The position numbers were made by a program, and so were the translations under genes. 64,000 nucleotides of DNA from Escherichia phage LF82-1. Location: sequence record PV648359; one strand, given 5' to 3'. The notes beneath the pieces are model-generated. The model was given only the letters and a program-made list of their open reading frames with translations. It did no database searches and was not told the DNA's origin. Each line of letters starts with the position of its first letter. Position 1 is the stretch's first letter. This document shows positions 23,358-24,009 of this stretch, piece by piece.

Positions 23358-23386
23358 AAAAAAGCCCCAACCTTTCGGAAGGGGCT
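23358..23386 (-). terminator. rho-independent terminator, copy 1 of a 3-copy identical module
   Basis: AGCCCC-UUCCGAAAGGUU-GGGGCU with GAAA tetraloop and U6 tail; directly follows the stop of 23391..23948. Confidence 0.7.
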
Positions 23387-23390
23387 TTGA

Positions 23391-23948
23391 TTAGTTTTTG
23401 TAATATCGTAAAGGGTTGATATGGAATGAAAGCATTGCGCGTGGAATAGGACGTCTCAAAAGACTCTTAAGTTTCCAACCACAGTAAACACGCAGATAAA
23501 ATGTAATACCACCAACCTTAAGATAAGGTATAGCAGCGAATAATCCCCATGCAGACTCGTTCCAAACTAAAAGATATCCATGATGTGCTGGGTCAGGAGA
23601 TCCTGATTTAGTTTCGGCGTTGCCTTTATAGTGCCATTTTGATGAAGCTTCGCGACCTAAAACATGATACGAAAAATTATATGCTTTGTTGCGCCATAAC
23701 CAAGCTACGCGTTGAGCATATTTACCTATAACAGGAATTTTACGTATTTTAGACCAACGTTCAACATGGCCACGGTCACCATCGATAGGATTATCGTAAG
23801 TCATCATCCAGTCAAAGCCATAAGGTAGTTTACCGGTTTTTTCACTATGGAATGGAACTACAAATGGTGCTAGAATAATTGCTAAAATCGCTGCGATCCA
23901 ATCTATAGGAACAAGAACAACCCAACTTACATATTTTAAAAATTTCAT
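23391..23948 (-). CDS. hypothetical membrane-anchored protein with its own late promoter and flanking terminators
   Basis: 185 aa; N-terminal TM (VSWVVLVPIDWIAAILAIILAPFVV); TATAAATA 25 nt upstream; GAGAGGA RBS. Confidence 0.6.
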   Translation of the reverse strand: MKFLKYVSWVVLVPIDWIAAILAIILAPFVVPFHSEKTGKLPYGFDWMMTYDNPIDGDRGHVERWSKIRKIPVIGKYAQRVAWLWRNKAYNFSYHVLGREASSKWHYKGNAETKSGSPDPAHHGYLLVWNESAWGLFAAIPYLKVGGITFYLRVYCGWKLKSLLRRPIPRAMLSFHINPLRYYKN

Positions 23949-23972
23949 ATATCCTCTCTTAGTTTACAAGGA

Positions 23973-23980
23973 TATTTATA
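23973..23980 (-). promoter_or_regulatory. T4 late promoter TATAAATA
   Basis: Exact consensus octamer about 25 nt upstream of the ATG at 23948. Confidence 0.6.
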
Positions 23981-23981
23981 C

Positions 23982-24009
23982 AAAAAGCCCCAACCTTTCG
24001 GAAGGGGCT
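23982..24009 (-). terminator. rho-independent terminator, copy 2 of identical module
   Basis: Same 28-nt hairpin + U-run as 23358..23386 and 39208..39236. Confidence 0.7.

Follow-up and report, generated by a model that had tools for sequence, protein, structure and literature searches.

A late-promoter DUF7338 gene cassette probably inserted by recombination into the rI terminator hairpin of a Mosigvirus-type phage

We analysed a stretch of 64,000 nucleotides from Escherichia phage LF82-1 (record PV648359; hereafter the window), in which a 185-aa open reading frame (ORF) on the minus strand (23391-23948) is bracketed by two identical stem-loops and preceded by a T4-type late promoter motif. 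With a probability of roughly 0.7, we think that this gene is the cargo of a late-promoter single-gene cassette that recombination has placed in the terminator hairpin resident behind rI, the lysis-inhibition regulator/antiholin gene. The resident hairpin would be an element of the PeSL type, i.e. a stem-loop with an early promoter behind it. The cassette would consist of a stem-loop terminator, a T4 late promoter, a 24-nt leader with a Shine-Dalgarno sequence, the DUF7338 gene, and a second stem-loop terminator.

Evidence for an insertion was obtained by comparing the rI locus in related phages. Over the 2.5 kb around the cassette, Escherichia phage LF82-2 and its siblings matched the window at 100% identity, and many Mosigvirus (RB69-like T-even) genomes at 95-98%; the window is of this type. 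rI (24016-24318, minus strand; called "lysis inhibition protein" in PV648360, an identical record) is the upstream neighbour of the cassette, and homologs of it are encoded in 671 phage records. A scan of viral contigs with rI gave 3 loci only; the junctions were compared in GenBank records. Junction-specific searches of GenBank phages identified 22 filled and 132 empty-type rI sites. The empty allele (FP43, LF82-41, ATK47, and RB69) comprises rI, one hairpin, and an early promoter, with rI and a DUF7438 ORF adjacent to each other, while the filled allele reads rI, hairpin, late promoter, DUF7338, hairpin, early promoter. All 22 filled genomes carried the cassette at this same site, and the window differed from FP43 by exactly 623 bp, measured hairpin to hairpin. 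Alignment with related phages, the check suggested with the original prediction, thus indicated that the gene and one hairpin (623 bp) are present or absent as a unit. That prediction had described an inserted or transposable cassette. The insertion is borne out by this filled/empty unit, whereas "transposable" applies only in the sense of mobilisation by recombination, no mobility enzyme being encoded in the 623-bp unit.

The 24-nt hairpin AGCCCCUUCCGAAAGGUUGGGGCU (minus strand) occurred exactly 3 times in the window. Matches to AGCCCCTTCCGAAAGGTTGGGGCT were found on the minus strand at 23363-23386 (copy 1), 23986-24009 (copy 2), and 39213-39236 (copy 3), with none further at up to 3 mismatches and 0 expected from 100 shuffles. 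Together with the T-run, 28 nt were identical across the three copies, as had been claimed, copy 2 being one T shorter. With their U-runs, the copies span 23358-23386, 23982-24009 (U-run at 23982-23985), and 39208-39236, all on the minus strand. Folded as RNA, each copy formed a 6-bp GC stem, a tandem U.U internal loop, two C-G base pairs, and a GAAA tetraloop, with energies of -16 to -18 kcal/mol (z -2.8 to -4.0; -17.9 kcal/mol for copy 1 and -16 kcal/mol for copy 2). The internal U.U loop and mismatches caused a simple terminator scanner to miss the hairpin, which was assessed by folding instead. Copy 2 begins 6 nt past the rI stop codon, at the same position as the single hairpin of empty genomes, and is a putative rI terminator and left cassette boundary. 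Copy 1 starts 4 nt after the stop codon of the cargo ORF and is the putative terminator of the cargo gene and right cassette boundary. In LF82-31, which has the same genome type, the module matched at 3 places only in about 170 kb; it is therefore not a common intergenic motif within the genome, an objection that had been raised beforehand.

The loops of these hairpins pointed to where exchanges occur. Among empty sites, FP43, LF82-41, ATK47, and phiE142 had a TTAT loop, and Av-05 and phiC120 a GAAA loop, RB69 being one mismatch from the GAAA-type query. Most filled sites had GAAA loops both upstream and downstream. The filled site of PTE-Eco05 combined an upstream, resident-type TTAT loop, fused to the late promoter, with a downstream GAAA loop, and that of AV109 had the pair TAAA/GAAA. 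In filled KMB38, the sequence 5' of the upstream copy was replaced by the version found at the downstream copy (TAATCAA), lengthening the repeat. From the hybrid alleles it follows that the linkage between loop and cassette switches within the ~14-nt 3' arm of the hairpin and its U-run, and we take these switches, as read from the aligned alleles, as showing directly that the hairpin itself is where exchange occurs. Integration, conversion, and precise excision would be expected to leave just such a series of alleles, though in which direction each step ran is presumed. The Av-05 record (IMGVR_UViG_2706795553, 120,938 bp; loci L052 and L076) has a Mosigvirus-type rI locus and also holds a Felix-O1-type DUF7338 gene (57% identity) beside a tRNA; its length is unusual, and it may be a mixed or chimeric assembly.

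The flanks of the window were 99.0-99.1% (left) and 97.4-97.9% (right) identical to those of empty LF82-41, ATK47, and FP43, as compared with 96.4-98.7% (left) and 93.0-95.3% (right) for other filled genomes. Cassette presence is therefore uncoupled from the flanks and, judged by flanking sequence, the filled genomes are not a clade. The cassette interior showed 96.7-98.7% identity among filled genomes and had diverged about as much as the flanks. For this reason, we rejected the recent sweep of a mobile element, and the rI-site cassette is, on these comparisons, an old, recombining polymorphism.

An exact match to the T4-type late promoter consensus, TATAAATA, abuts the U-run of copy 2 (23973-23980, minus strand). 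It lies 24 nt before the ATG of the cargo gene, with a GAGAGGA Shine-Dalgarno sequence in the leader, which confirmed the predicted arrangement of a late promoter upstream of a gene flanked by two hairpins. A second TATAAATA follows copy 3 (39199-39206, minus strand) and precedes a 208-aa ORF, which it would drive. The predicted fusion of terminator and late promoter was found at both places, only the T-run and a G separating the hairpin from TATAAATA, and neither motif had a -35 or Mot box. The DUF7338 orthologs of JS98-type, MX01, and Gaprivervirus genomes likewise have TATAAATA 24-30 nt upstream of their ATG, and the equivalent element in the fPS-90 record is annotated as "predicted late promoter". 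It is this conservation in orthologous cassettes, not the motif match itself, that makes TATAAATA credible as a promoter. A further TATAAATA (24568-24575, minus strand) precedes rI.1/rI; the neighbourhood is therefore not purely early, and its initial description as an otherwise early region was overstated.

Behind copy 1, a promoter scan detected an early-type promoter with a TG extension, TTTACT-N16-TATAGT (23319-23346, minus strand), which empty genomes have unchanged right behind their one hairpin. It fits the T4/PST PeSL consensus TTTACW-N17-TAYWAT (PMC4122927) except for the spacing and one base. Copy 1 and this promoter thus look like a PeSL-like element, predicted to drive the downstream small ORFs. 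At another site in the window (54995-55031, plus strand), a different hairpin, GGGAGACTTCGGTCTCCC, with a UUCG loop, is fused to TATAAATA (55024-55031) between baseplate genes resembling 8 (53990-54994) and 9 (55057-55920). The fusion of a terminator with a late promoter is therefore a more general layout in this genome.

Copy 3 appears to be the native terminator of a tRNA/stable-RNA operon about 15 kb away from the cassette. It aligned with the T4 rnaC 3' flank and with the T4 rnaC (species 1 RNA) terminator hairpin AGCCCCGACCGAAAGGTTGGGGCT, to which it was identical at 22/24 nt. The region upstream of it (39237-39560, minus strand) aligned with T4 rnaD and rnaC, and rnaC is annotated at the corresponding position in ATK47; Rfam contained no family matching the rnaC/rnaD-like region or the hairpin. 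The T4 hairpin, which occupies the same position after rnaD/rnaC and is the ortholog of copy 3, differs in that its stem is fully paired, due to GA in place of TT, and in that no TATAAATA directly follows it. Only two tRNAs were present at the window locus (Arg-UCU, 39903-39979, and Met-CAU, 39983-40057, minus strand), versus eight in T4.

The 208-aa ORF behind the copy 3 module (38537-39163, minus strand; starting MYTFNEFL) showed weak similarity to fPS-90 g136c (E 1e-5) and no Pfam or PADLOC match. We consider it a member of a second cargo family found behind the hairpin/late-promoter module. Another hairpin, GGGGACTTCGGTCCCC, stands at its end, with an early-type promoter (GTTTACTT...TATAGT) behind it (38475-38530, minus strand); together they make up one more PeSL-like element, at the border of the variable tRNA-e.8 segment. 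Copy 3 is also orthologous to the hairpin at the tRNA locus of Dhakavirus, so that the tRNA locus of the window is the empty form of the arrangement found in JS98-type phages.

The module was present in 759 phage records, and other genera showed related arrangements. In Gaprivervirus (RZ; loci L005 and L015), the cargo gene follows rnaC and lies behind the identical 24-mer fused to TATAAATA, while a sister genome (L008) has an empty site joined via a 13-nt microhomology, GGGCTTTTTTATA. In the Dhakavirus genomes MX01 and JS98, the cargo gene is bracketed by two identical hairpins with a GGCCC stem variant (GGCCCTTCCGAAAGGTTGGGCC). The downstream GGCCCTTCCGAAAGGTTGGGCC copy precedes an early promoter in MX01; in JS98-type genomes, the downstream hairpin is again fused to TATAAATA and is followed by an ORF starting MKTYNEFL. 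Some other genomes have the DUF7338 gene and the MKTYNEFL-type ORF in the opposite order. The Tequatrovirus fPS-90 has rnaC, the T4-type hairpin variant AGCCCCGACC, TATAAATA, a 157-aa MKSYTQFL ORF, and an identical second hairpin; its record annotates the hairpin as a terminator, and ESh27 has the matching empty site for this second cargo. Three filled/empty pairs were thus available: the rI site, the Gaprivervirus tRNA site, and fPS-90 versus ESh27. The bracketing hairpins were identical within a genome and differed between genomes in three lineages (TT, GGCCC, and GA variants), as expected from insertion into, or conversion by, a resident hairpin.

Two further observations were made in these genomes. 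JS98-type genomes contain another GGCCC-variant hairpin at a third locus, in the context tttatggttattgg-hairpin-ttttttgtttagaaatcttcc (Dhakavirus loci L089, L098, L101, L121, L127, and L130), where it appears to stand at the end of a convergently oriented gene. DUF7338 genes were repeatedly found inside or right after tRNA clusters in phage groups unrelated to each other, namely Felix-O1-like phages (Felixounavirus, L031-L045), Karamvirus (L020-L024), Dhakavirus, and Gaprivervirus (further loci L003, L004, and L015-L019), an association that may be due to a link in function or to a hotspot common to these groups.

The 18-nt core of the hairpin, CCCTTCCGAAAGGTTGGG, was detected in 63 viral-contig stretches of IMG/VR, in about 16 distinct contexts with a GC content of 31-61% (loci L006, L010, and L083-L136; e.g. 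L129:4710-4727 and L006:2733-2750). The outer stems around it varied yet remained complementary, and a T-run followed the core in 57/67 occurrences in other phages. These features suggest that the core is a terminator widely shared by T4-type phages, including very divergent ones. Because of this wide sharing, the identity of the copies is weaker evidence for a cassette than the filled/empty junctions. In several distant environmental T4-type phages, CCCTTCCGAAAGGTTGGG was located directly 3' of the gene for the Gp23 major capsid protein.

The proposed mechanism is as follows. Copy 2 would end the rI transcripts, and the abutting, gp55-dependent late promoter would start a short monocistronic late mRNA, the sole source of cargo reading, which would end at copy 1; the early promoter behind copy 1 would then serve the downstream genes just as in empty genomes. 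The terminator and late-promoter activities assumed here are putative. The 24-28 nt of hairpin identity, also present 15 kb away in the tRNA/rnaC operon terminator, would act as a portable homology, or "linker", which the phage's own recombination may use to insert, excise, convert, and exchange cassettes. Partners in these exchanges could be the two copies at one site, different loci, or co-infecting phage genomes, and excision would proceed through a 623-bp circle or through direct-repeat deletion between the two copies. Because the exchange falls inside the hairpin, a hairpin would be regenerated on both sides; because the joint lies within a terminator, insertion or loss would never fuse transcription units. 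By analogy with the mini-circles described for PeSL elements, the recombination pathway is presumably homology-driven.

Several points weigh against this proposal. For homologous recombination of the UvsX type, 24-28 nt of shared sequence is a short stretch. Copy 2 has a short U-run, with 4 U following its stem, and TATAAATA was not enriched in this AT-rich window (8 found versus 8.4 expected). The identity of the hairpin copies partly reflects constraint on the terminator itself. Distant homologs in Karamvirus, the RB16/KP27 group, and Felixounavirus have the cargo gene without this hairpin; carriage of the gene without the repeats, which had been named as counter-evidence from the outset, was thus found in distant phages and not in close relatives. 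The closest cargo homolog outside the filled genomes was only about 76-77% identical, and therefore no donor was identified. Finally, since the interior is as diverged as the flanks, the insertion at the rI site must be old, and the Mosigvirus data could be accounted for, with no ongoing mobility, by one insertion with recombination and loss afterwards. A distinct explanation is one ancient insertion into the rI terminator of an ancestral Mosigvirus followed only by loss, through occasional deletion between the two direct repeats, and by ordinary homologous recombination in the flanks, with no continuing role of the hairpin in insertion. This would agree with the single site shared by all 22 filled genomes and with the divergence of the interior; in addition, T4 is well known to lose sequence between short direct repeats (Singer et al. 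1982 and Mosig et al. 1998, cited in PMC2839356), and the GAAA-loop empty sites of Av-05 and RB69 resemble products of precise excision. We nevertheless regard it as unlikely, because in other genera the same cargo occupies another locus, again between hairpins of this family, because a second cargo has the same architecture and its own empty site, and because the hybrid loops place the exchanges inside the hairpin and not in the flanks.

The exact conservation of the 18-nt core with its tandem T.T mismatches in about 16 divergent contexts, in which the outer stem changes and stays complementary, raises the question of whether the hairpin is recognised as a structure. Enzyme-targeted recombination, in which a cruciform or single-stranded, folded hairpin would be recognised by a phage protein such as endonuclease VII, as are integron attC sites, would account for this. 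The authors of the PeSL work speculated on a stem-loop-binding protein, the deletions analysed by Mosig often ended at GGGC/GCCC inverted repeats (both in PMC2839356), and endonuclease VII is encoded nearby in relatives. Yet no integrase or dedicated recombinase was found in or next to the cassette in the window, the Gaprivervirus filled/empty pair joins two different hairpins via the 13-nt microhomology GGGCTTTTTTATA, which fits homology-driven exchange, and selection for a good terminator could by itself account for the conserved core. We therefore judge this mechanism very improbable at the locus; the wider idea that the hairpin is a dedicated, structure-recognised, attC-like recombination site of the T4 superfamily, its 18-nt core, with the tandem T.T mismatches and the GAAA loop, being bound or cut by a phage protein, seems to us improbable as well. 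That the copies are coincidental, i.e. independent generic terminators under constraint, with the presence or absence of the gene being unrelated to them, would be in line with the widespread use of the core as a terminator in many phages and with the unrelated hairpin abutting TATAAATA between genes 8 and 9. It is made extremely improbable by three independent filled/empty pairs with junctions exactly at the hairpin, and by the existence of hybrid loops and of bracketing copies that match within genomes, including the outer stem and the variant positions. Transfer by a neighbouring homing endonuclease of the seg/mob kind, which would cut the empty allele and have the cassette copied in by co-conversion, was brought to mind by the spread of the T4 tRNA region by SegB (Brok-Volchanskaya 2008, cited in PMC4122927), by the position of rI in what T4 nomenclature calls the mobD region, and by such a gene next to tRNA-Arg in fPS-90. 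We rejected it as hardly credible: no endonuclease ORF was found in the 623-bp unit or adjoining it in the window, and precise junctions at the hairpin were observed in place of graded co-conversion tracts. Insertion by recombination into the resident rI hairpin remains the explanation that we favour.

The cargo protein matched Pfam DUF7338 (PF24027) over its full length (residues 1-184; 208.4 bits versus a cut-off of 27; E 8.6e-62) as well as phrog_2143 (E 1.4e-78), and homologs were found in 553 phage records. An alignment of 29 homologs showed invariant polar residues (T50, D52, H61, R64, R86, N87, Y90, R153, and K159) and a WLWRNKAYNF motif. AlphaFold2 gave a confident model (pLDDT 92.5, pTM 0.81) with a transmembrane helix (residues 9-33), a helical subdomain, and an antiparallel sheet of five strands, a predicted fold for which no solved relative was found. 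The initial view of the product as a membrane-anchored protein is in line with the N-terminal helix. The gene is under purifying selection, with a dN/dS of 0.04-0.11. Our best guess is that the protein is made late, is anchored in the inner membrane with its globular domain in the periplasm, as suggested by the positive-inside rule, and acts at the envelope. A T4-type holin T was a candidate, given a similar architecture, the adjacency to rI, and the naming of some Felixounavirus homologs as "holin"; we rejected it, since the cargo resembled neither holin T nor its periplasmic domain in sequence or fold. A role in defence or anti-defence was also rejected, PADLOC giving no hits for the cargo or its neighbours. 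In gut-metagenome contigs, distant DUF7338 homologs (about 34-37% identity) lie between Gly-rich, tail-fibre-like ORFs and a lysis cassette made of a small transmembrane/coiled-coil protein and a SAR-type lysozyme (L063:2495-3585, L065:2468-4359, and L068:2495-3805).

As to the other neighbours, rI.1 (24331-24543) and tk (24571-25152) lie upstream of rI on the minus strand, and small ORFs of the mobD region (DUF7438, DUF7189, and others) lie downstream of the 185-aa ORF, also on the minus strand. A 59-aa ORF (22554-22733, minus strand) is labelled "helicase loader" in PV648360. Its size is far below that of gp59, and its counterpart in other records is a small mobD-region ORF resembling Tk.1; the label is probably an annotation error.

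The closest published systems are the PeSL cassettes and their middle-promoter counterparts, PmSL, which flank indels in T4-type genomes and for which mini-circles were detected by polymerase chain reaction (PCR) in T4-type phages (Arbiol et al. 2010, PMC2839356; Comeau et al. 2014, PMC4122927). The reported frequency of PeSL circles is about 1e-5 per virion. As in those systems, a stem-loop with a promoter, followed by a Shine-Dalgarno sequence and a gene start, lies in a hyperplastic region (at copies 1 and 2), and a single small ORF is bracketed by two elements where a close relative has one. Both also share transcriptional insulation, a logic described for PeSL (PMC2839356), and a proposed recombination between elements through mini-circle excision and integration. 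However, the PeSL promoter is a sigma-70-like early promoter and that of PmSL a MotA-box middle promoter (Arbiol 2010/Comeau 2014), whereas the cargo promoter here is of the late (gp55) type, TATAAATA, the early type being found at copy 1 only. The phrase "late promoter" had 0 occurrences in PMC2839356 and PMC4122927, and the one other paper with both terms in the literature searched does no more than cite these two. Moreover, the homology shared here is the ~24-28-nt hairpin alone and not a promoter region of ~100 bp, the crossovers fall in the hairpin arm and not between the -10 box, the Shine-Dalgarno sequence, and the ATG as in the sequenced RB49 mini-circles, and the hairpin is a specific sequence common to the rnaC terminator and to distant T4-type phages. 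The element is thus a late-promoter variant of the PeSL kind, not a PeSL in the strict sense, and not a self-mobilising transposon.

As one extra gene with its own putative promoter and terminator, standing between genes that are adjacent in relatives, the cassette also fits the definition of a moron. For lambdoid morons, the presumed route of arrival is illegitimate recombination, with no conserved sequences at the flanks, and expression is typically from sigma-70 promoters in lysogens (Hendrix et al. 2000, summarised in PMC2839356), whereas the flanks here are a conserved repeat and the promoter is of a lytic late type. Integron cassettes (an ORF with an imperfect attC hairpin) resemble it as "promoter-independent" single-ORF units delimited by an imperfect inverted repeat, in the circles of the proposed mechanism, and in tandem stacking (hairpin-late promoter-DUF7338-hairpin-late promoter-ORF in JS98). 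They differ in that no integrase adjoins the cassette in the window, the hairpin doubles as a predicted RNA terminator, each cassette here has its own promoter, and one junction is explained by a 13-nt microhomology.

That genes are shuffled at promoter/stem-loop elements is the main published idea of how T4-type phages gain and lose accessory genes, and it rests on few phage pairs and on circles detected by PCR. The locus described here provides an unusually complete natural series in sequenced isolates, with empty, hybrid, converted, and extended alleles, two loci, and a second cargo, and it narrows the point of exchange to a hairpin arm of about 14 nt. LF82-2 (filled) and LF82-41 (empty) come from a single study and share their isolation host, so that the mechanism is testable by crosses. 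DUF7338 is a widespread family of phage membrane proteins, and the hairpin core is oddly invariant across the T4 superfamily. Should the hairpin after all prove to be an attC-like site, strictly lytic phages would possess an integron-like capture, stacking, and exchange of late-expressed single-gene cassettes across genera. On the reading that we prefer, the cassette concept would extend to late promoters, such that accessory genes may be plugged in with late timing while their neighbours are left undisturbed.

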